Source of the DNA: a virus
Taxonomy: Duplodnaviria > Heunggongvirae > Uroviricota > Caudoviricetes
Length of the DNA stretch: 64,000 bases
Strand: one strand, 5' to 3'
IMG/VR virus record: IMGVR_UViG_2700989507_000006
The notes beneath the pieces were generated by a model. The model had not been told where the DNA came from and ran no database searches. It worked only from the letters and a program-made list of their open reading frames with translations. The position numbers were made by a program, and so were the translations under genes. Of this stretch, positions 3,297 to 52,178 are shown piece after piece. Positions within the stretch are counted from its first letter, which is position 1; every line of letters begins with the position of its first letter.

Positions 3297-4097
3297 TTAG
3301 CGCGTTGCCGCGACAGGTACCAGCACACCAGCATCAAGCAATCGCTTCATCAGCCACTGCTGACCTTTGCCGGTTATACGAGTCGTGAAAGAAATCCTGC
3401 TTCCATTGCTTGTATCGATCACGGTTTCTTTAAGGGTGAAATACCCACGGGATATGTATTCTTGTTTGGGGACGTTCCTGCGTTCACCGGTTGCGATCAG
3501 AATTCCGTTATCACGCAACCAGGTGAAGAGATAGTTTTGGCCCAGGCCGAGCACTTTGGCATAGTTGCCGATTAGAACCCCGCTGGCGGTAGCAACGCGT
3601 TCGGCGAATTCGACTTTAGGTGCATCCATAAGCATTTTTTGCTCCAGCCGTTGCTTTTGCTCTGCCAGGTCGGCAGCCAAACGGAGAGCTTCAGGGAGAC
3701 TCTGCGGAATAGCAGGTTGTAATCTTCCGGCTCGATAGTCGATAAATGTCTGGTTTACCTTCAGCCGAAACGCGGGAGAAATCCAGCCTGCGTACTCCAC
3801 AGCGAGCAATTCATGGGCAAAAGTGCCGCCGCCACGGCCTTCGAACGAAACTATGCAATTCTGCATAGTTTCTTTTTCAAGCTCTTCGATGAGCTGTTTT
3901 GCTGACAGCGTTCTTAGCCATTGAGCTGGCGCTTTATGGGCACCGAGTCCGCTCGCTCTGTGTAGAGCATTAAGGTTGTAACGGCCAGCGCGGTCGGTCG
4001 TAATTTCAACACCACAAATAACGGGCAGAGTGGTTGAAGGATCGACATTTTGATGAAGGTTTGATATATTCATATCCGCATTGAATGTTTGTTGCAT
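3297..4097 (-). CDS. kilA: KilA (KilA-N domain plus antirepressor-type C-terminal domain)
   Basis: 266 aa; N-terminus matches the KilA-N domain pattern; C-terminal about 110 aa is paralogous to the C-terminus of the next gene; C1 operator immediately upstream. Confidence 0.65.
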   Translation of the reverse strand: MQQTFNADMNISNLHQNVDPSTTLPVICGVEITTDRAGRYNLNALHRASGLGAHKAPAQWLRTLSAKQLIEELEKETMQNCIVSFEGRGGGTFAHELLAVEYAGWISPAFRLKVNQTFIDYRAGRLQPAIPQSLPEALRLAADLAEQKQRLEQKMLMDAPKVEFAERVATASGVLIGNYAKVLGLGQNYLFTWLRDNGILIATGERRNVPKQEYISRGYFTLKETVIDTSNGSRISFTTRITGKGQQWLMKRLLDAGVLVPVAATR

Positions 4098-4166
4098 TTT
4101 TTCTCCAAATTTGCATCAACCTTCAATCACCAGCTCGAAATGGTGATTCTTTGCACTTAGAAAACG

Positions 4167-4183
4167 AAATTTATTAGAGCAAA
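4167..4183. promoter_or_regulatory. C1 repressor operator (16/17 match to AAATTTATTAGAGCAAT)
   Basis: aaatttattagagcaaa upstream of the kilA start; matches the position of the P1 kilA-repL operator. Confidence 0.6.
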
Positions 4184-4260
4184 TTTCTCTGACTCGATCC
4201 AGATCGGGTTGGACGATCTGCTCAGAAACCTGCCAGTTTGCTGGCAGGTTTTTTCTTTTG

Positions 4261-5670
4261 TTAACCTATTGCTACTGGTTTTAACAAACCAGCATCAAGT
4301 AGCTTGCGAGTTAACCACTGCTGGCCTTTACCCGTTAATTGGGGCGTCAGCCGTATCTGATAGCCATTTTCATCATCCAGCACCACTTCTTTCACCGTGA
4401 AATACCCGGCGTTGATGTACTGTTGGCGCGGTACGTTTTTGCGCGCACCAAAAGCCATGAGAATGCCGTTCTGGCGCAACCATGAGAAAAGGGCGTTTTG
4501 CTTAAGTCCAACGACCTTTGCAAAGTTCCCGATCAGGATTCCATTAGCCACTGATACCCGATCGGCAAAATCGACTTTAGGGGCTGCGGCCACCAGCTGC
4601 TGATTTAGCTGGTGGGTTTTCTGTTCCAGTAGCTGCTTTTGTTCAGCCAGCTCGGCAGCCAGGCGCAGAGCTTCGGGAAGCGTCTGGGGGATTGCGACCG
4701 GTTGCTGTTCTTTTTGCCGGAAGTAGCTGTCTTCCAGTTTTTCAAAGAATGCCCACGCTTGCTCTGTGTCTACGATCTTAGACATGCGTGCCGCTCCGCG
4801 TTCGGTCCAGAGTATTAAGGATCTGGTCTTGGGGGAAATTTGCAGCTCGCTAAAAGATAGTCGCAAACTTTTTATCTCATCTCCTTTGATTTTAAAGAAG
4901 TGTTTACCCTCTACAAATCGTTCTTCATTGCGATTGTAGTTCTGCTGAATACGAATAGGTGTAGTGCCATACCCTCTAGCAAGAGTCTCGGTTGTCACGA
5001 CGCGTACTCCCTGCCATTCCAGAACGGGAATTTCATCAGGCTGATTTTCAACATTTATAGGTTCCAATGACTGAATCATGGTATGTAGCGAACGGCGGAC
5101 CGCTTTTGACTCGCGCGCGGCGACTCGCAGGGCTTGTTTGTAGGTCATGGTTATGACAACCATAGGCGTACCACCACCTGGCGGCACGGTTGCACTTTTT
5201 GTGTAACCGTCCTCACCTTCTAATTCGTCGAGTATTTTTTCGATGAATTTGTTGTTCCGAACCTCTGGTTCCCCACATAACTTACGCGCTTCATTGACCA
5301 TCTTTAACAGTGTCTGGCTGTCGATTGTGTCTCCGGTGGTGGGGATGACATTCACGGCTGGTGCTGGCGTTGCTGAAGCAACAGGTGCTGGTTTTTTAAC
5401 ATTCAAATTATTACTGGTCATTCTATGTGCCTCCTTTCTCATTTCTGCTGCCACCGTTGCGTAACGTAGACGTCCTTGTTCAATCAAATAATCCCTGATC
5501 TCGGCTATCAGTAGCCTGTTGATCACAGCCTTATCTGTTCGGGTATAAAAACGTCTGGTTATCATGAAATAGTTGGCAATTGCGCCGGGGATCTCCCGTG
5601 TCGGCACACAGGCAGTATGCAGGGCGATCGCTTCGGCTATGTCATTACGGGTGACGAGAGGTTTTTTCAT
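4261..5670 (-). CDS. ant: antirepressor Ant (ORF6N-type N-terminal domain plus ANT/KilAC C-terminal domain)
   Basis: 469 aa; central region matches the ORF6N domain pattern; C-terminus matches the antirepressor C-terminal domain; start overlaps the stop of the icd-like ORF. Confidence 0.65.
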   Translation of the reverse strand: MKKPLVTRNDIAEAIALHTACVPTREIPGAIANYFMITRRFYTRTDKAVINRLLIAEIRDYLIEQGRLRYATVAAEMRKEAHRMTSNNLNVKKPAPVASATPAPAVNVIPTTGDTIDSQTLLKMVNEARKLCGEPEVRNNKFIEKILDELEGEDGYTKSATVPPGGGTPMVVITMTYKQALRVAARESKAVRRSLHTMIQSLEPINVENQPDEIPVLEWQGVRVVTTETLARGYGTTPIRIQQNYNRNEERFVEGKHFFKIKGDEIKSLRLSFSELQISPKTRSLILWTERGAARMSKIVDTEQAWAFFEKLEDSYFRQKEQQPVAIPQTLPEALRLAAELAEQKQLLEQKTHQLNQQLVAAAPKVDFADRVSVANGILIGNFAKVVGLKQNALFSWLRQNGILMAFGARKNVPRQQYINAGYFTVKEVVLDDENGYQIRLTPQLTGKGQQWLTRKLLDAGLLKPVAIG

Positions 5671-6202: not shown

Positions 6203-6219
6203 AAATTTATTAGAGCATT
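6203..6219. promoter_or_regulatory. C1 repressor operator (15-16/17)
   Basis: aaatttattagagcatt, lying between the divergent immI leader and the downstream secreted-protein gene. Confidence 0.55.
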
Positions 6220-26506: not shown

Positions 26507-29494
26507 ATGAGCTTAAGCGATCAGGTGGTGATGGCCACCAGCATAGAAACGCTGATCGAGCTGCTAAAAAACCTGCCCGATTACGGGCGGGTTTCGTATG
26601 TGGTGACAGCGAAGGGAGACGAGGTAAAAACAGCGTTTGATATCGTCGATGCCTCAACTCTTTTGGTATCCAATACTCTGGACGGGAAAATTAATCCGGA
26701 CTATCCCCAGGAACTTCAGCCGCGCGACCGGACCCGCGCATCCAGCCTTCTTCAGGTTAACCAGATATCCAAGGATTTGCGGCCTGCTCAGCTTACCGAT
26801 TCCGGTCTATCCAGCCATGGCGCGCCGATAATTGGTGAGGACAATGCCGTTGAGTCAGGTAATGGACGGACCATGGGGATCATTAAAGCCTATCAGGACG
26901 GCAATGCGGATCGGTATCGGGAGTACCTGATTGAACATGCGAGCGAATTCGGCATACGTCCTGAAAAGGTTGAATCAATGACGGCTCCGGTACTGGTGCG
27001 CCGCCGGTTAACTAAGGTTGACCGCGTTCAGTTTGCCAAAGACTCAAATATTTCTGATCTTCAGGAAATGGCAGCCAGTGAAAAGGCTTTTGTTGATGCC
27101 GACAGCATAACACCGGCGATGATGGCGCTGTTTAATCCGTCAGAAAGCGGAGATCTGCTTAGCCGCAGTAATGACGCGTTTATTCGCGGATTCATGACGC
27201 AAGTTGGTGCCACACAGGCTGCTGGCCTTGTAACGGAAGATGGGCGACCAACGCGGCAACTTGTTGACCGTATACAAAACGCGATCTTTGCCAAGGCATA
27301 TAAGGATGCGCGCCTGGTAAGGATGGTTGCAGAAGAACCTGATCCGGATATGCGTAATGTTCTGACGGCGCTTAATGCGGCGGCCAATGATTTTGTACAG
27401 ATGCAGGCTTTATCAGGAGAAGCGCACAAGCAGGCTGTGACAACTATCGTTGATGGTATTGAAACAGCGGATAGCCTCGATAAAAAGGCGCTGGCGGCAT
27501 TGAAAGATGCGGTAGACCTGGTAAGGCAATCGAAGGAGTCAGGCCAACATATTACCGATGTTATTGCTCAGGGGGATATGTTCAGCGAAACGGCCCCGGA
27601 AGTGAAAGCACTCGCGTTGTTTATCGTCGCGAATAACCGTAGCGCGAAGCGTATGGCCACCGCCTTTAAGTTGATGGCGCAACGTATCAATGATGAGTTA
27701 CAGCACCAGGGCCAGGCGCTCGGGGATATGTTTGGCGGCGGTGATGTGTCGTTACAGGATATCCTTCGCCAGGTGTCTCAGGAACTGGAAAACGAAGGCA
27801 TGCAAGGGATATCCGGCGGTCTTTTCGAGTCCGTTTCCGGCGGTAGTTACAACGGCGTTGCTCCATATACCAGTTTGCTATTACATCGGGCATCCGGCAC
27901 CAAAGACATTATTCATCTGATCAGGCTGCTTTCCCGTACAGATCCCCAGGATGAACAGCTTGTTCAAGTGCTTGCGCATTTTGTTCGAATGCCTGTTGCC
28001 GACGTGAAAAAATGGTGCCGATTATTCGGTATCAGCAATTCGTTACTTCGCGGCTTGTTAAATCACGCATCCTCCCTTGGGCGCGATGGCTTTGACGAGA
28101 TAGCGCAGGCGATAAAAAACGGAGATATGCCACCAGCTATTGACTGGTTTTCCATTCGCCCAACCAGGGTGAAAGCATTCCTTAGCGCGGCGCAATCAGC
28201 ATCACCATTGGCAGAAATGGTTCAGAGGTTATCGCTCATATTCACAGACCATACCGCGTTGGGTGATCTGACTCTGGACGAGATGAAGGAAGCCTCCATT
28301 CAGTGGGCCGATCAACAAAATGAGGTTAACTCAGACTTCTTGCCAGCATTCAGGAAGGCCGTTAGTAAAGCGGATGATGCCCGTGGAATTCTGAAGGCAT
28401 TTAAGGCATTGCAAAGTCGTGTTAATAAACATGTCGGTGATATCGATGGGGTAACGGCGGAAGGCCGGGATATCCTTAAAGAGCACGGCATAACGCCAGA
28501 GTTTATTGATGAGATCAGGACTGATATGCAGCGTGAGGTCGTATCGTCCCTGCAAATCGTAGCCAGAGCGTTGGCGGATGCTAATCCGAAGAGTGCGGCC
28601 ATTGTTAACCGTGTTATTGGTGATATTGAAGCATCGGAGGGCATGGGGGCGCTGAAACTCTTCCTTTCGCGAGCGTTTAATCCTAACGGCAATATTCTCC
28701 CCAGCATTATTGGTGAGGCTAAAAAGCATGTCAGTGAAGAAGAACTTGAGCTGCTTAACCAGCTACTCAATCGATTTTCATATATCCCGCAGAAACGCTG
28801 GCAAATGAATCAGCGAAGTATGGATTCGGTCTACGAGAAAGTGTTATCTGCCATGAACAGTGCGATCGCCAACTCATCTGTATCAGAAGAAAAAGCTCTT
28901 GAGTGGGCCGACTCTTTTATCACGGAAGAAGTGGAAGAAGCCCGCGCTGGACAGAATGGTGGAATAGACTTGCGCAAGGAACTTGCTGATATTTATCGCC
29001 TGACCGGCGGGAAAATATCAACCTTATCAAGGGTAATTCACCACAAGGGTAGGGCGTATGCAAATCTTAATGGTGTTGTTGCTGTCGATTTGCACGATGA
29101 AAATGCAAATGCACTGTGGCACGAGCTGGGTCATCATCTTGAGTACAGTAACCCGGGGTTGTTAGAGAAAGCCAGGTCATTCCTGAAGGCCAATGTTGAA
29201 GGGGATAAGCCATCTTTCGTTAATATCGGTGGGCGTGGCAAGCCTGAATGGTGCTTCAGATCTCGATTGAGTGATATTTATATGGCGAAGGTATACCCGC
29301 CAGCCTCAGTAAGTAACACCGGGAAAATTCGGCAGAAATCACCGACTATTTCCAAAACGTCAGCAACGGAAGTATTCTCTATGGCTCTTCAGTTGTATCA
29401 TGACAAAGAGGCCGCTGCCGCATCACTGATGAATGGTGACGGATTGCTGGAACTGTTATTAGGTGTGGCAAAGGAGCTAAATAATGCAGATTAA
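26507..29494 (+). CDS. DdrB-like large protein of the darA operon
   Basis: 995-aa ORF; assignment by position and size. Confidence 0.5.
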   Translation: MSLSDQVVMATSIETLIELLKNLPDYGRVSYVVTAKGDEVKTAFDIVDASTLLVSNTLDGKINPDYPQELQPRDRTRASSLLQVNQISKDLRPAQLTDSGLSSHGAPIIGEDNAVESGNGRTMGIIKAYQDGNADRYREYLIEHASEFGIRPEKVESMTAPVLVRRRLTKVDRVQFAKDSNISDLQEMAASEKAFVDADSITPAMMALFNPSESGDLLSRSNDAFIRGFMTQVGATQAAGLVTEDGRPTRQLVDRIQNAIFAKAYKDARLVRMVAEEPDPDMRNVLTALNAAANDFVQMQALSGEAHKQAVTTIVDGIETADSLDKKALAALKDAVDLVRQSKESGQHITDVIAQGDMFSETAPEVKALALFIVANNRSAKRMATAFKLMAQRINDELQHQGQALGDMFGGGDVSLQDILRQVSQELENEGMQGISGGLFESVSGGSYNGVAPYTSLLLHRASGTKDIIHLIRLLSRTDPQDEQLVQVLAHFVRMPVADVKKWCRLFGISNSLLRGLLNHASSLGRDGFDEIAQAIKNGDMPPAIDWFSIRPTRVKAFLSAAQSASPLAEMVQRLSLIFTDHTALGDLTLDEMKEASIQWADQQNEVNSDFLPAFRKAVSKADDARGILKAFKALQSRVNKHVGDIDGVTAEGRDILKEHGITPEFIDEIRTDMQREVVSSLQIVARALADANPKSAAIVNRVIGDIEASEGMGALKLFLSRAFNPNGNILPSIIGEAKKHVSEEELELLNQLLNRFSYIPQKRWQMNQRSMDSVYEKVLSAMNSAIANSSVSEEKALEWADSFITEEVEEARAGQNGGIDLRKELADIYRLTGGKISTLSRVIHHKGRAYANLNGVVAVDLHDENANALWHELGHHLEYSNPGLLEKARSFLKANVEGDKPSFVNIGGRGKPEWCFRSRLSDIYMAKVYPPASVSNTGKIRQKSPTISKTSATEVFSMALQLYHDKEAAAASLMNGDGLLELLLGVAKELNNAD

Positions 29495-29795
29495 AATCGC
29501 AGCGCCATTAGGCGGAGATGCCATTATCGAATTTGATGATAATGAAGAAGTTTCCGGGCGTTTAAGCATTATCTCCGGTGACATTACCGAGGACATGATC
29601 GCTGAAGCCATAGTTGGGGCAAATCCCAATAGCTATATGGGATTCGTTAATACCCTTGATGCTCCCGCAAGTGATGTTCTCCGAACGCTGCATCTTTACG
29701 CTGGCTGGTTTGTTGATTGGCCAGCAGTAGATGGTGGTGATGAGGACGACGACGACGATGATTTTGGTGATCATGTAGACCAGATCGTATATTGA
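29484..29795 (+). CDS. highly acidic small protein (possible DNA mimic)
   Basis: 103 aa, Asp/Glu-rich with a DDDDDD run; overlaps the upstream stop by 11 bp. Confidence 0.5.
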   Translation: MQIKIAAPLGGDAIIEFDDNEEVSGRLSIISGDITEDMIAEAIVGANPNSYMGFVNTLDAPASDVLRTLHLYAGWFVDWPAVDGGDEDDDDDDFGDHVDQIVY

Positions 29796-29826
29796 AGAAA
29801 TCCCGCCAATCGGCGGGATTTTTACC

Positions 29827-30921
29827 TCACGAGAAGCTCTTTTCTGATGTCAGCCAACAGTGCTCGTGCAAATCTCTTGGTGGTTTTTCGACAAATGCCT
29901 CTTCAGCTACATCCCGCCAGGGAATTTGTTTAGCCCATTCAGCTATAGCGTTATGGTTTGCTGAGAATAACGGTATTGTATAGGCTTTCAGCCAGTCTAA
30001 TGTGCTGGAGTTGTGTTTTTGAGCGTGATGTTTCGCATGGTGTTTGGCGATCACGATCGTAGGCACTACCCATTTACTACCGTCAGTCATTGTGAAGTGC
30101 ATATTACGGGGAACAGATGATTTTTCCATCAACTCCCGAATCCCAGGGAATTTCCCCAAGATCAATCGGCGATATTTATCGCTATTGCACCCACCAAACT
30201 CTTTGGCTTTATATTCAAGATATGCTTCAGAAACGAGAGGTGAATCCTCTGTGCTGAGAGTTATAGCCGTGAAAATACCAGCAGGATTGTTCTCACTATG
30301 GGCCAACCGGTGATGCGAATCATAAAAATACCCTTTCTCTCGTTCCGATGGTTTCGACAGCAACAGCAGGCGCGAATCATAACCGGTCAAATTGCCTGTT
30401 ATCACAGCATGAGCGCGGTCGCTGATTTCTGCCGCGTTAATAACGATGAAGAGATCATGCGGCCCAGTAAAACCAGCCAGAGATTCTTCGTTATTCAGAC
30501 AATAGTTTAAATATACACATCCCCATGCTTCACTGATATGTACCAACCCTTTTTCAGGGTGCAGTTTGAAATGATTGCCAAGAAAAGGGTGTTTCTTGAT
30601 AACCTGCGCCCAATAACAGCACATATAGTCAATTATATTGTTTCGACTATCGTTAATAGCAGGAGAAACAACCACTGTACGGGAACACGAATACAGTATT
30701 GTTTGCAGGATGCTAATCACTGCCACAATAGAGGTTTCCCCAATACCATGTGGTGTGGTGGCAGTGACTTTGGCTCCGGTGTTCTTTATCGCGTTAATAA
30801 TTTTTGCTTGATGAGGTGTTAACTTAATATCAAGCAACTCTTTTGCTGCCAGTTCCCAATTGTCTTTATACCGTTCTATCAGTGCTAACCAGGCAGATTC
30901 ATTCTGTATACGATTAATCAC
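29827..30921 (-). CDS. terminase-large-subunit ATPase-domain paralogue with degenerate Walker motifs
   Basis: 364 aa colinear with the PacB N-terminal ATPase domain from this window; Walker A GKS replaced by GETS and Walker B acid replaced by Asn; no nuclease domain. Confidence 0.6.
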   Translation of the reverse strand: MINRIQNESAWLALIERYKDNWELAAKELLDIKLTPHQAKIINAIKNTGAKVTATTPHGIGETSIVAVISILQTILYSCSRTVVVSPAINDSRNNIIDYMCCYWAQVIKKHPFLGNHFKLHPEKGLVHISEAWGCVYLNYCLNNEESLAGFTGPHDLFIVINAAEISDRAHAVITGNLTGYDSRLLLLSKPSEREKGYFYDSHHRLAHSENNPAGIFTAITLSTEDSPLVSEAYLEYKAKEFGGCNSDKYRRLILGKFPGIRELMEKSSVPRNMHFTMTDGSKWVVPTIVIAKHHAKHHAQKHNSSTLDWLKAYTIPLFSANHNAIAEWAKQIPWRDVAEEAFVEKPPRDLHEHCWLTSEKSFS

Positions 30922-31708
30922 TTTCCACCTCTTCCGTGGTGTTTTCTTGCAGTTCTGTTAATGCAGCACGACACAGGTTCCGGGCATTGGCTATAGCCAC
31001 ACTTTTTACCTCATCCGTCATTGTGCAGGTAATGTACTGATCGAGTTCTTCAGCTCGGATGATGCTTTTCCCAATCATAAACTCTATTTGCCAGAGCAGA
31101 TCGGCATCCATCGTCAGTATTTCAGCCTGGCCTTCTGGGCCTGCGGGGAAGCAAACATAAGACTGTTTGCCCAGGCCGATAACTCGACAACTTGCTTCAA
31201 GAATTGCACGCTTGAGGTCTAACTTTGTAACTGAAACAGGTTGATTTTCACCTGTGATTACGCCATTGACATGGACGTGGAAGGGCATGTAGCTTGAAAT
31301 TCGCTCTACTTTCCATACGCCAGCAAGCGATCCTTCATGCAGCACAATGGGGGTAACCGCGAGTTTCATCTCACCATATAACTGCTGGCAGATAGCTGGA
31401 TTGCTGAATACATCCAAAGGTTCACACTCAAACAGCGGCGCAATCTGCATGAGGTCCATCATGGTCATACCAGGGGTACGAGCAGTAATGAATCTGCGCA
31501 TTCCAGTATCCATTGTGCGCCAGATAGCTACACCATGCTTTTTGCTCACTTCTTCAGTAAAGCCAAGGTGGCACATGATGGTTTTTTCGATAGCCAGATC
31601 AGAGATAGAAACCTTTTCGCCTGGCACTCCATCATTATTGATGGTCACTTCGACACTCTGGCCATTACGTAGGCGGTATTGAATGGTTTTAGTATTTTGT
31701 GCTGTCAT
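30914..31708 (-). CDS. hypothetical protein co-transcribed with the terminase-like paralogue
   Basis: 264-aa ORF whose stop overlaps the downstream gene start by 8 bp. Confidence 0.5.
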   Translation of the reverse strand: MTAQNTKTIQYRLRNGQSVEVTINNDGVPGEKVSISDLAIEKTIMCHLGFTEEVSKKHGVAIWRTMDTGMRRFITARTPGMTMMDLMQIAPLFECEPLDVFSNPAICQQLYGEMKLAVTPIVLHEGSLAGVWKVERISSYMPFHVHVNGVITGENQPVSVTKLDLKRAILEASCRVIGLGKQSYVCFPAGPEGQAEILTMDADLLWQIEFMIGKSIIRAEELDQYITCTMTDEVKSVAIANARNLCRAALTELQENTTEEVESD

Positions 31709-31805: not shown

Positions 31806-32294
31806 TTAAAACGGAATATCGTCTTCAAAGTCCATTGGAGGTTCGTTATTGGCGTTGCTCTGAGGTTTACCGCCACCGCTGTATTGCTGGTGGTTTTGAG
31901 GTTGGTTTGACTGCCCCCAGCCATTTGAGGACTGTGAATCGTCGCGGCGAGCGCCGATCATTTGCATGGTGCCGCCCTGGCTGACGATAATTTCCGTCGT
32001 GTAACGTTCTACACCGGCGTCATCTGTCCACTTACGGGTTTTAAGTTTCCCTTCGATGTAGACCTGAGAACCTTTTCGTAAATATTCACTCGCAATTTCA
32101 GCAAGTTTTCCGAACAAAACGACTTTATGCCATTCTGTTTGCTCTTTCTGTTGGCCCGTTTGCTTGTCGCGCCATGATTCATTCGTTGCGATGCTGAGTC
32201 TTCCGACCGCTCCGCCATTTGGTATATACCTGATCTCCGGGTCTTGCCCCAGGGTACCAATCAGGATGACTTTGTTTACACCGCGTTGTGCCAC
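31806..32294 (-). CDS. ssb: single-stranded DNA-binding protein
   Basis: 162 aa; OB-fold core, Gly/Gln-rich linker and acidic C-terminal tip DFEDDIPF. Confidence 0.9.
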
Positions 32295-32313: not shown

Positions 32314-32330
32314 AAATTAATTAGAGCAAT
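32314..32330. promoter_or_regulatory. C1 repressor operator (16/17)
   Basis: aaattaattagagcaat between the divergent ssb and lyz genes. Confidence 0.55.
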
Positions 32331-48049: not shown

Positions 48050-48066
48050 ATTGCTCTAATAAATTA
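48050..48066. promoter_or_regulatory. C1 repressor operator (16/17) overlapping a TTGACA promoter element
   Basis: ttgacaATTGCTCTAATAAATTAtagt. Confidence 0.6.
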
Positions 48067-49500: not shown

Positions 49501-50985
49501 TTATTCATTAAGCCATGCCAGAGCTTCATCAACCTGCGCTTCGTCTTCGACGCTAAGCACTTCATCCTGGGGAACATAATCCGCCAGCATAGCGAAACAA
49601 TATGTATCCCAATGGTCTGGTGAGTGCAGGTTGAGTTTTTTCTTCATATCCTCCTTACTCATCACCTTCCATTGACCTGCGGAGTTAATCCCTACAGGGA
49701 TTTTCGACGCTTCCTCAATAGTTTCATTACCCTTATCCAGTCTCATACGACCTGATTTTACGGCCTCTGCGGCTTGAACGTTGGCATAAGCACGCTTATC
49801 AAAGTACAGGCTCTTATCTTCACGGCTATGCATCTTTTTACCCCAGCGTATACGCTGTACGGTAATACCATAATACTCGTACATCAGATCCGCCGTTGCT
49901 TTACCCAGCCCATCGCCGTCTATCGCTATGGTGATATTTGGGAATCGCTCAGGATTACATTCTGCGAAAATTTTGGCGGCAAGCTGCGTTTCTGTAACGT
50001 CTGTGTATTCCAGCATTCGATAGTTGATTACACGGCGTTTATTTCGCTGGCCGGACACCATCATGATATTGATAACGGACTTATCCCGTCCCGTACCACC
50101 AGCAACGTCCACACATGCAAGCCAGCCCCATCCTTTGGCAATCTTGACTTTCCGCCGCGTTGCACGTTCAACCTCATCACGTCCAAGAAGGAAGCCATCC
50201 TGTGATTTAGGGAATAGGCCGCGTACCTTAATCATGTACATAGGGTTATCACGCCCGCCGTACTCCGCCAGCTTCATTTTGATAAATGCTGGCGTTACCA
50301 ACGGTGATTCCTCACTGTTAAGCGTGATCGCCGTATAAACACCATCAGGGTTACCAGGACGCTTGGCCAGTTTATGGTGTGTATCGTAGAAATAGCCGCT
50401 TGGGCGTGTAGGCTGTGACAGCAATAAGATGCGGTTATCCTGTCCGGTAAGAGCACCGGTGATGATACCGAAAGCTCTATCACTGACACCGGAGGCTTCA
50501 TCGATAATATACAGAAGATGATCTGCGTGTTCACCGGCGAGAGCTTCTTCACTTCCCAGACGAAAGCCCTTCGGTACTACAGTCCATACACCTTTACCAG
50601 TAACCTCATAGAAAGCGGTTTCTGTCAGAACAAAATAATCAGCAAGCCATGGAAAACGGCTGGTGGCAGTAGCCCAGTTTATCTTGATGTACTTGAATAT
50701 ACCGGTCATTACCTGCTGAATTTTGTTCGCAACGATAATGGCGCGGGCACCGGGATACATGATTATGAACAACATGATCATGATAGAAGTCATGTCTGAT
50801 TTCCCGGTACCGTGACCAGACGAAACAGATGTCTTGCTACCCTGTTCCTGCACAGACTCAATAATCAGATCCTGCTGCCAGGTAGGTGTTTTGCCGAACA
50901 AAACATCAGCGGCCGCAATCCAGTCATAACGATATAGCGCCACCAGCTCGCGCCAACGTGGATCCGTTACGCAACTTCTGGCCAT
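49501..50985 (-). CDS. pacB: terminase large subunit PacB
   Basis: 494 aa; Walker A GHGTGKSD, Walker [13 protein letters not shown]-terminal nuclease region; overlaps the pacA stop. Confidence 0.9.
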
Positions 50986-52178
50986 TAATCATCATCCCCG
51001 TATAGCTTGCGGGTAACTTCTTCGTCTTCCTCCTCGTCTTCGTCCAGGTCTTGTTCCAGCCATGGGTCGTTTGATACACCTTCAGTATCAACATCTCCAT
51101 AACCGCCTGTATCAACGATATCGGCGATTTCTTCCCTACGCTGCTCAATCCACAATGCGGCATCCGCGCGGCGGTTGGCGGCCCGTTCTCGCGCAACTTT
51201 GTCCAGATCTTCAAGAGAAGGGCCACCGACGGCTGTTTGCCTTTCCTCATCATCGGTATTGGTCTTAGGAGCACGCAGATCGGCTTTGATTTGCTCCAGC
51301 ATCAGGGGCGGCACTTTCCCGCCATGCGCCTCGATGAATTCAGCTGCTTCCAGCACTGACCAGTTATTTTCACGCTTTCGTTCGTATGCCAGCTTAACAA
51401 TGCCAGCTTGCCCCATAGACAAAGCGTGCTTTTCCGCCTCCCGGCTTTCTTTTCGATAGTTATTCCGGATGCTGTAAATGGTGTTGATCAGGCTGCTTAT
51501 CTGCGCGGAACAGCTGTTTAGCATGCTCGCGATACGATATTCAGGCGGAGTCCCTTCATCATCGTCTTTTTGCTGATCGCGCATTTCCTGCACCAGACGA
51601 ATACACGTATCCCTGGCGTTCTCCAGCATAAGGAGATGAGAAAGAGACTTTTCCAGAAGAGTGGTTTCCAGAACATCGGCCCCGGACCGACGCAACATAG
51701 CGCGCGCGGCCTTCCGCGCTTCAACGTTATCTATCAGGTAATCGCCAGCTTCGAATTCAAAGCGTTCACCATCATCATCCAGGGTGTCGCGTTCCAGGCG
51801 ATCACGTAAGGTTCGGTGGGCACGGGTGATCACGTCATGATCATCAGAACGATCATTTATGCGCTTATTTTGGCGCTTAGCGTTCTCGACTGCGGCACTG
51901 ACAACAGCATTAACTCTTTGTTTTTCAGCCATTTCAGCCACAATGTGATCACCTGCACGTTGATCATTAGCGTGATCAATGATCATGCTTTTTAGTGGTT
52001 TCCTGACAGGCTTATTTGGCTTACGGCTGTCCGCTGTTCCGGTGTCTTCTTTGAATGCACGGAGATAACGACGTGCGGTGTTTGGGTTGAGATTAAACTC
52101 GGCGGCATATTGTGCGATGGTGTAACCACCATCTCGCGCCAGGCGAGCAAAATTCTTCTTGTGATCGTCCCAGGTCAC
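50985..52178 (-). CDS. pacA: terminase small subunit PacA (contains the pac site)
   Basis: 397 aa; N-terminal HTH-like region; the pac hexamer cluster lies in its 5' third. Confidence 0.9.
51826..51986. other. pac packaging site (3 + 4 TGATCA/G hexamers flanking the cleavage region)
   Basis: GATC-containing hexamers at 51828, 51837, 51851 and at 51947, 51962, 51974, 51981, inside pacA. Confidence 0.8.

Follow-up and report, generated by a model that had tools for sequence, protein, structure and literature searches.

A P1-like phage-plasmid (Punavirus; IMG/VR virus record IMGVR_UViG_2700989507_000006), of which the 64,000-nucleotide (nt) stretch analysed here is termed the window, encodes a 364-amino-acid (aa) paralogue of the ATPase domain of its own large terminase, PacB, in which the catalytic motifs have been erased. 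We are highly confident in the combined description of this protein as an ancient PacB-ATPase paralogue that lost catalysis with its fold kept, was fused to a further domain, occupies a distal, translationally coupled position in its gene cluster and has accessory status. An initial annotation made from the DNA letters had claimed a dedicated non-catalytic terminase look-alike, colinear with the N-terminal ATPase domain of PacB, and both claims were upheld; the two roles that it suggested, a decoy against host systems that sense terminase or a regulator of packaging, are still hypothetical. In BLASTP, paralogue and window PacB were 36% identical over 266 aa (E = 5e-56), the match spanning residues 11–272 of the paralogue and 11–274 of PacB, colinear from the N terminus to the end of the ATPase domain. 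PHROG 5902 matched both proteins end to end (E = 1.7e-180 for the paralogue), and a match of the paralogue to phrog_2 (E = 8.7e-9) indicated homology to large terminase (TerL) ATPases. A sequence profile search of the PDB with the paralogue returned only weak matches, which all fell in the nuclease end of genuine terminases. The dedicated character of the protein was borne out by intact reading frames, purifying selection and family-wide motif loss, which are presented below.

Paralogue and PacB have in common the N-terminal helices, the Q-motif glutamine, P-loop glycines, an FYDSHH segment and the lid-subdomain motifs, whereas the paralogue lacks the Walker A Lys and Ser, the Walker B Asp-Glu pair, the C-motif Thr and Arg, and the nuclease domain. 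Replacement of the Walker A lysine had been read correctly (GIGETS versus GTGKSD): Lys62 of PacB is Glu in the paralogue and the first P-loop Gly is Pro, and the consensus G-x-G-K-[ST] is absent. For Walker B, the reported loss of acidic character stood but the residue pairing (Asn for Asp, Ala for Glu) was shifted by one position; in the gap-free register, Asp162 is replaced by Ile and Glu163 by Asn, with no hhhhDE consensus, and both acidic residues are lost in either alignment register. SQPTR of PacB, in a segment that we infer to be the coupling (C-) motif, corresponds to SKPSE(R) in the paralogue, with loss of the conserved Thr and Arg. The RNase H-like nuclease domain is missing, as had been noted: the alignment with PacB stops at residue 272, and the C-terminal 100 aa of the paralogue showed no relation to a PacB-family nuclease profile (hhalign probability 0.1%). 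An alignment with MAFFT had hinted that this C terminus was a nuclease remnant, a candidate that the hhalign result ruled out; the protein is not a mere truncation but ends in a distinct domain of about 100 aa, unrelated to PacB. The two genes also differ in setting, the paralogue lying in an early operon under putative C1 control and PacB in the late pacAB operon, and in status, the paralogue being accessory and PacB essential. Databases list the protein as 'hypothetical protein' or, in the annotation of MH422554.1 and MH445380.1 and in UniRef names, as a 'terminase large subunit' or a 'DNA packaging protein'. These latter two names mislead, since neither the nuclease domain nor any catalytic motif is left.

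Erasure of the active site is a property of a family. Searching 1.84 billion cluster representatives with a profile recovered mostly canonical PacB-like terminases of about 500 aa, together with short proteins (230–444 aa) that end with the ATPase domain. Canonical G-x-G-K-[ST] and [DE]-E motifs were present in 123 of the 150 best cluster representatives, and the clearly degenerate representatives among these 150 were all short (230–444 aa). Twelve paralogue clusters were set against 30 canonical sequences, the comparison being limited to the 49 alignment columns with conservation of at least 80% among true enzymes. Lost across the paralogues were S56, G57, H58, T60 and K62 in Walker A, D162, E163, S165 and G166 in Walker B, H153, and Q191, T193 and R194 in the C-motif region, whereas the fold-defining glycines, aromatic residues, lid-subdomain motifs and the Q-motif glutamine were kept. 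The Walker A lysine, invariant in the 30 canonical sequences, is E, Y, R, H, M, T, I or C in the 12 paralogues, and the Walker B glutamate, likewise present in 100% of the canonical set, occurs in none of the 12. Replacement residues at the lost sites vary among paralogues, as one would expect once the pocket has fallen out of use. The family has at least 12 diverged clusters (about 12 below 50% identity), all of which retain the fold residues. In a neighbour-joining tree, indicative only because it carries no bootstrap values, all paralogues but one formed a single clade apart from canonical terminases. The exception, the degenerate 268-aa P0079, branches among canonical terminases, a placement that may reflect a second, independent inactivation. 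The 444-aa P0045, also devoid of Walker motifs, carries a different C-terminal extension of 190 aa, which is not a nuclease either.

All members with context evidence lie on P1/D6-like phage-plasmids, as 85–100 kb contigs or plasmids of E. coli, Shigella, Salmonella and Citrobacter, and a normal PacB is also encoded in the window and in each of the four relatives checked. A related-locus search of IMG/VR, GTDB genomes and JGI metagenomes found no contexts for the short paralogues; these were obtained by cluster look-up and from PLSDB. In the published literature on pseudo-terminases and terminase paralogues we found no description of a PacB family that has lost its Walker motifs.

The gene is a selection-maintained pseudo-enzyme and not a sequencing artefact or a pseudogene. 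All 22 copies of the window allele (the window and 21 IMG/VR loci; 15 distinct sequences) are intact open reading frames (ORFs) of exactly 364 codons, and the median Nei–Gojobori ratio of nonsynonymous to synonymous substitution rates (dN/dS) was 0.26 for the whole gene, with values of 0.28 for its ATPase-like and 0.12 for its C-terminal part. The allele was detected in 100 of 5,426 complete E. coli genomes, each of the 101 matching records spanning 80% or more of its length. PacB was present in 599 of the genomes, about one sixth (around 17%) of which carry the paralogue allele, and at the same stringency the allele of the neighbouring gene isaA was found in 335, roughly three times as many as the paralogue. 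PLSDB held 162 plasmids with a near-full-length paralogue, about 120 of them at 90–99% identity and about 40 with alleles near 50%. The paralogue is thus an accessory gene, and it is absent from P1. In the P1 reference NC_005856, a hairpin, IS1 and an unrelated isaB occupy its place; the retrieved locus (3908–4005) retains the isaA stop and, of the paralogue, only the codons GTG ATT AAT. Because the sequences diverge after three codons, P1 lacks the gene through replacement, having lost it or never had it, and not through a simple IS1 insertion. The notion that P1 IsaB is an IS1-truncated remnant of the paralogue was ruled out, as the two share no similarity.

Comparison of two plasmids indicated that the pseudo-ATPase module evolves independently of the true packaging proteins. 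Between NZ_CP029365 and NZ_CP031917, PacB is 99% identical, PacA 95% and the IsaA-like protein 96%, and the C-terminal domains of their paralogues are 90–96% identical, whereas the pseudo-ATPase parts are only 53% identical over residues 1–262. In windows of 30 alignment columns, identity was 23–56% over the N-terminal two thirds and rose afterwards. The two paralogues (3983–5077 of retrieved locus L004 from NZ_CP029365.1 versus about 5001–6056 of L037 from NZ_CP031917.1) are embedded in an isaA–paralogue–doc segment of about 96% identity in which only the pseudo-ATPase core is highly diverged, and either a module swap or localized diversification could account for this core. Relative to its cluster representative, P0039, the paralogue of NZ_CP031917.1 (L037 4959–6056) is interrupted close to the 5′ end by a stop or frameshift, and its RefSeq coding sequence begins 30 codons downstream; this copy may be damaged at the N terminus. 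No paralogue was nearer to its own PacB than to foreign PacB proteins (34–41% throughout). In these alignments the look-alike module is a hypervariable segment between constant flanks that varies independently of the real terminase, which argues against a role requiring matched contacts with PacA or PacB. A variable core between constant flanks resembles the pattern seen in conflict genes and favours a role of that type, although mosaic recombination may have given the same picture.

The constant C-terminal part is a separate module and not what is left of a nuclease. Its 97 aa match the C terminus of phrog_17928 (E = 2.8e-13). They also match a stand-alone 98-aa protein encoded by gene_35 of the P1-like Cronobacter phage JK004 (tblastn E = 2.7e-9), two genes after a DnaB-like helicase, and the C terminus of ORF36 of Xanthomonas phage CP2, the N-terminal part of which is DUF1351-like and the gene of which adjoins DUF2303, Erf, exonuclease and SSB genes. 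DUF1351 takes a Gam-like position beside single-strand annealing protein (SSAP) genes (PMC8093625). A scan of IMG/VR yielded 71 loci with the domain, mostly as free-standing ORFs of 98–106 aa. Among neighbours at 42 representative loci (same strand, at least 125 aa, within three genes) were Mu Gam-like proteins (4), integrases (4), DnaB (3) and RdgC (3), as well as DNA methylases, SSB, RecT, Rad52-like and ERF proteins; the domain thus sits in the early part of temperate phage genomes, which is rich in recombination genes. The paralogue's C-terminal 97 aa thus belong to the phrog_17928/JK004 gene_35 family, the members of which are elsewhere free-standing or fused to a DUF1351-like protein; fusion to a pseudo-terminase is confined to three paralogue alleles. 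The family, which has no Pfam model, has the conserved motifs MPDGS-W-VP, PLF and DWA-NNMNW-DV (loci L038–L108 from IMG/VR, L026 4010–4306 and L027 3998–4300).

The initial annotation had paired the paralogue with an unknown 264-aa protein whose start its stop was said to overlap. The arrangement is the reverse: the 264-aa gene lies upstream, its TAA stop and the paralogue's GTG start fall within an 8-nt overlap of the two genes, and a Shine–Dalgarno sequence precedes that start. The protein is 98% identical to P1 IsaA (PHROG 2326). 'Unknown partner' was also an overstatement, as IsaA frequently occurs without the paralogue. The AlphaFold2 (AF2) model of IsaA is confident (predicted local distance difference test (pLDDT) score 86.5); neither fold nor sequence searches found informative relatives. 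In a CRISPR interference screen of P1, isaA was non-essential (PMC10695390). In three alleles an isaA-like gene precedes the long form of the paralogue, the one that has the C-terminal domain; the two genes overlap in two of these contexts and are closely adjacent in the third. The long form is found in the window, after ssb and isaA, and in NZ_CP029365 and NZ_CP031917, at the end of an operon running from cre through dut/Tad2-like and isaA-like genes, beside doc/phd. Genes of the isaA-like type are common without the paralogue, as in SJ46, Ro157c2YLVW, and Enterobacter and other D6-like elements, where the isaA-like gene usually follows a Tad2-like (PF11195) or dUTPase gene. Short paralogues are coupled elsewhere: in a Citrobacter plasmid (L035 5336–6792) the order is ref–paralogue–mat, with a 4-nt overlap with the stop of a Ref-family nuclease gene, and on another plasmid (L036 5183–6783) it is rdgC–methylase–dam–paralogue, with a 1-nt overlap with the stop of a Dam-family methyltransferase gene. 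At ref and dam, the short paralogue is always the distal, translationally coupled gene, and the upstream partner differs. Stop/start overlaps thus recur in four contexts. Because isaA occurs alone and short paralogues are coupled to other genes, IsaA is a frequent neighbour and not an obligate partner.

Expression of the paralogue can be predicted from its surroundings (Table 1). The C1 operator just upstream of ssb corresponds to Ossb/Op21 of P1. The window contains 11 C1-operator matches (up to three mismatches to the P1 consensus ATTGCTCTAATAAATTT) against 0.22 expected by chance, other sites being found, for example, at 4167–4183, 6203–6219 and 48050–48066, and this number fits a complete P1-type immunity network in the element. 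A consensus scan of the interval from ssb to the paralogue's end yielded neither promoter nor terminator. The scan missed a perfect 10-bp hairpin followed by a T-run, probably a bidirectional terminator, in the 31 nt that separate the stop codons of the convergent genes hxr and paralogue. Lysogens would accordingly keep an ssb–isaA–paralogue transcript repressed, and on induction or infection it would appear early, before that of late pacAB. Beyond ssb, lyz, pro and prt also lie around the locus, which abuts the dar anti-restriction genes through ddrB. The isaA–IS1–isaB segment is variable region 2, or RD-2, of P1-like phage-plasmids (PMC9603915, PMC6906374).

Table 1. Features of the paralogue locus and of the pac genes used for comparison (positions in the window).
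Feature	Positions	Strand	Basis or remark
ddrB	26507–29494	+	dar operon; neighbour of the paralogue locus
hxr	29484–29795	+	Convergent with the paralogue
GC-rich hairpin AAATCCCGCC-AATC-GGCGGGATTT and T-run	29798–29823		Read from sequence; no strand assigned
364-aa terminase-ATPase paralogue (pseudo-terminase), GTG start, TGA stop	29827–30921	-	ORF; PacB match; 22/22 copies intact
C-terminal domain of about 100 aa (aa 268–364)	29830–30120	-	Match to phrog_17928 C terminus
PacB-like ATPase-fold domain (aa 1–262), catalytic motifs erased	30136–30921	-	Alignment with 30 canonical terminases and 12 paralogues
Degenerate Walker B, FIVINAAE (PacB YIIDEASG)	30427–30450	-	Sequence; family alignment
Degenerate Walker A, PHGIGETS (PacB GHGTGKSD)	30730–30753	-	Sequence; family alignment
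Translational-coupling junction: Shine–Dalgarno GAGGTGG (30925–30931), then GTGATTAA (30914–30921)	30914–30931	-	Read from sequence
isaA homologue, 264 aa, upstream gene	30914–31708	-	98% identical to P1 IsaA; PHROG 2326
ssb, first gene of putative ssb–isaA–paralogue operon	31806–32294	-	ORF; P1 annotation
C1 repressor operator ATTGCTCTAATTAATTT, 1 mismatch to consensus	32314–32330	-	Operator scan; counterpart of P1 Ossb/Op21
PacB, canonical large terminase (comparator)	49501–50985	-	BLASTP, PHROG
PacA	50985–52178	-

As our tentative first choice among the roles weighed here, we propose that the paralogue is an early terminase look-alike at the phage–host immune interface that acts on host terminase sensing. 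Because the loss of motifs and nuclease should leave it unable to hydrolyse ATP or cut DNA, it would act by binding, and because the pseudo-ATPase is hypervariable between elements with near-identical PacA and PacB, its target would lie outside the phage's own packaging machine. In one version, the paralogue would occupy a host factor that recognizes the terminase ATPase fold without triggering it; in another, it would perform an early function in a form that lacks the ATP-bound active site read by sensors of the Avs2/Avs3 type. Erasure of the ATP site would keep the look-alike from triggering sensors, and the constant C-terminal domain, possibly with IsaA, could supply a second contact or an output. 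The narrower proposal of a hypervariable early protein that blinds or pre-empts terminase-fold sensors (Avs1–3, Upx or another) is doubtful as it stands. The setting is circumstantially that of a counter-defence hotspot, with RD-2, the adjoining ddrB, a Tad2-like gene before isaA in relatives and the C1 operator.

Published work on sensors bears on this proposal in both directions. The ATPase domain of terminase alone activates EcAvs2 and Upx (PMC13601566, PMC11564622); in EcAvs2 a bridging ATP touches the terminase-bound ATP and Mg, and SeAvs3 reads active-site residues of terminase together with ATP (PMC13601566). Because these sensors read the ATP-bound active site, a copy without Walker motifs is likelier to be invisible to EcAvs2 and SeAvs3 than to be a straightforward decoy, and, going by the published structures, the paralogue should be poorly sensed by Avs2 and Avs3. 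Stand-alone proteins resembling terminase ATPases, T4 vs.8 and Ksap1/2, are suspected anti-defence proteins (PMC13601566, PMC11564622). Like the paralogue, vs.8 is an extra, lineage-restricted, nuclease-less phage homologue of the phage's own terminase that consists of the ATPase domain only (PMC13601566); unlike it, vs.8 keeps Walker A and B and activates EcAvs2, and the P1-like family stems from another terminase lineage, clustering with PacB-type and not T4-type enzymes in the neighbour-joining tree. Ksap1 and Ksap2 are likewise lineage-specific phage proteins with a terminase-ATPase-like fold (PMC11564622, PMC13601566), but they are small Avs2 triggers with resemblance in fold only, whereas the paralogue is much larger and a clear sequence relative of PacB. 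Accessory proteins that act on packaging machinery by binding rather than by catalysis are also represented by the Ppi/TerS-type interference of SaPIs, in which satellite-encoded proteins target the small terminase of the helper phage; they are unrelated in sequence, and the paralogue is encoded by the phage-plasmid itself.

Several observations weigh against a role at the immune interface. No PADLOC model matched the paralogue, IsaA or Hxr at E ≤ 1, nothing in Pfam or NCBIfam matched the paralogue, and its AF2 model, built from a five-sequence alignment, was too poor for a fold search (pLDDT 50). A copy without Walker motifs may fail to bind Avs2 and Avs3 at all and hence be a poor competitive inhibitor, and the known terminase-like accessory proteins vs.8 and Ksap1/2 activate Avs2 rather than inhibit it (PMC13601566, PMC11564622). 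Avs sensors are broad, and a decoy against them would be expected beyond elements with PacB-type terminases, the only place where the family has been located so far. The hypervariable segment could have arisen by mosaic recombination rather than through an arms race. Lastly, the neighbours ssb, ref, rdgC and dam, and the Gam, DnaB and SSAP genes around the C-terminal domain, fit DNA metabolism equally well.

A role within the phage's own packaging is unlikely, although the distribution of the family gives it some appeal. The dead ATPase domain would here be a non-productive subunit that binds PacA, PacB, the portal or pac DNA and in this way sets the timing or the extent of pac cleavage and motor assembly, such as by preventing premature cutting of plasmid or concatemer. 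Confinement of the family to elements with a PacB-type terminase speaks for this, as do the strong conservation of the lid subdomain and of PacB positions 21–40, the latter more conserved among paralogues than among true terminases. So do the coupling of one short paralogue to a Dam methyltransferase and the position of another between ref and mat, given that, according to Sternberg and Coulby, pac cleavage in P1 is reportedly controlled by adenine methylation. However, the pseudo-ATPase is only about 53% identical where PacB and PacA are nearly constant, and no paralogue is closer to its cognate PacB; P1 packages normally without the gene; the allele occurs in a minority of PacB-positive E. 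coli genomes; and the gene belongs to an early operon remote from pacAB, not to the late operon. We give the same low weight to a factor in early DNA transactions, in which the ATPase-less RecA-like fold and the C-terminal domain would bind DNA or recombination and replication proteins, for instance in end protection or as an aid to concatemer formation or cyclization. Its case is made by neighbours: ssb in the window, ref and rdgC–methylase–dam at the short paralogues, the DnaB-like helicase and the Erf, exonuclease and SSB genes next to the C-terminal domain in JK004 and CP2, respectively, the recombination and replication genes at the 42 IMG/VR loci, and the Gam-like position of DUF1351. 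Such neighbours mark the early region generally, however, which is home to anti-defence genes too, and neither confinement to PacB-type elements nor a hypervariable core between near-identical flanks is what one would predict of a general DNA binder; no other terminase fold that serves in this way is known to us.

Less probable again is an inter-element weapon or sensor, the variable module of which would bind packaging proteins of competing phages or satellites, such as the small terminase, with the constant C-terminal domain and/or IsaA as the output that brings about exclusion. The architecture of a variable and a constant module in an accessory hotspot would suit this, defence systems that sense small terminases exist (TerI and Rip1, cited in PMC13601566), and the ATPase domain of a terminase would be a natural binder of small terminase. 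Against it, with a C1 operator ahead of it the operon should be repressed in lysogens, neither a PADLOC match nor a recognizable effector domain was found, and the short family members have neither the C-terminal domain nor isaA beside them. That the gene is a decaying remnant of a duplicated or acquired terminase can be almost entirely discounted: the catalytic motifs and nuclease domain are all gone and P1 dispenses with the gene, but decay is contradicted by the uniformly intact 364-codon ORFs, by the low dN/dS, lowest in the C-terminal domain, by coverage of at least 80% of the gene in every matching E. coli record, by retention of fold residues in about 12 clusters below 50% identity, and by the Shine–Dalgarno sequence and translational coupling here together with the recurrent stop/start overlaps. 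We therefore rank the terminase look-alike at the immune interface first, the packaging modulator and the DNA-transaction factor jointly behind it, the inter-element weapon or sensor next and the remnant last.

No phage protein serves bacterial immune sensors as an infection signature more widely than the large terminase, and what vs.8 and Ksap1/2 do for their phages is an explicit open question (PMC13601566), to which the paralogue adds a natural, independently evolved example. It has useful traits for this purpose: the ATP-binding and catalytic motifs have been removed while the fold is under selection, and a hypervariable look-alike stands beside a constant genuine terminase. Add-back experiments are straightforward in P1, the standard laboratory phage with its well-developed genetics, because it has no copy of the gene. 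If the narrower proposal of a protein that blinds or pre-empts terminase-fold sensors is true, the paralogue would be the first terminase-mimic anti-defence protein and would offer an answer to what vs.8 and Ksap1/2 are for; irrespective of what the paralogue binds, a packaging motor has here cleanly given rise to a viral pseudo-enzyme.

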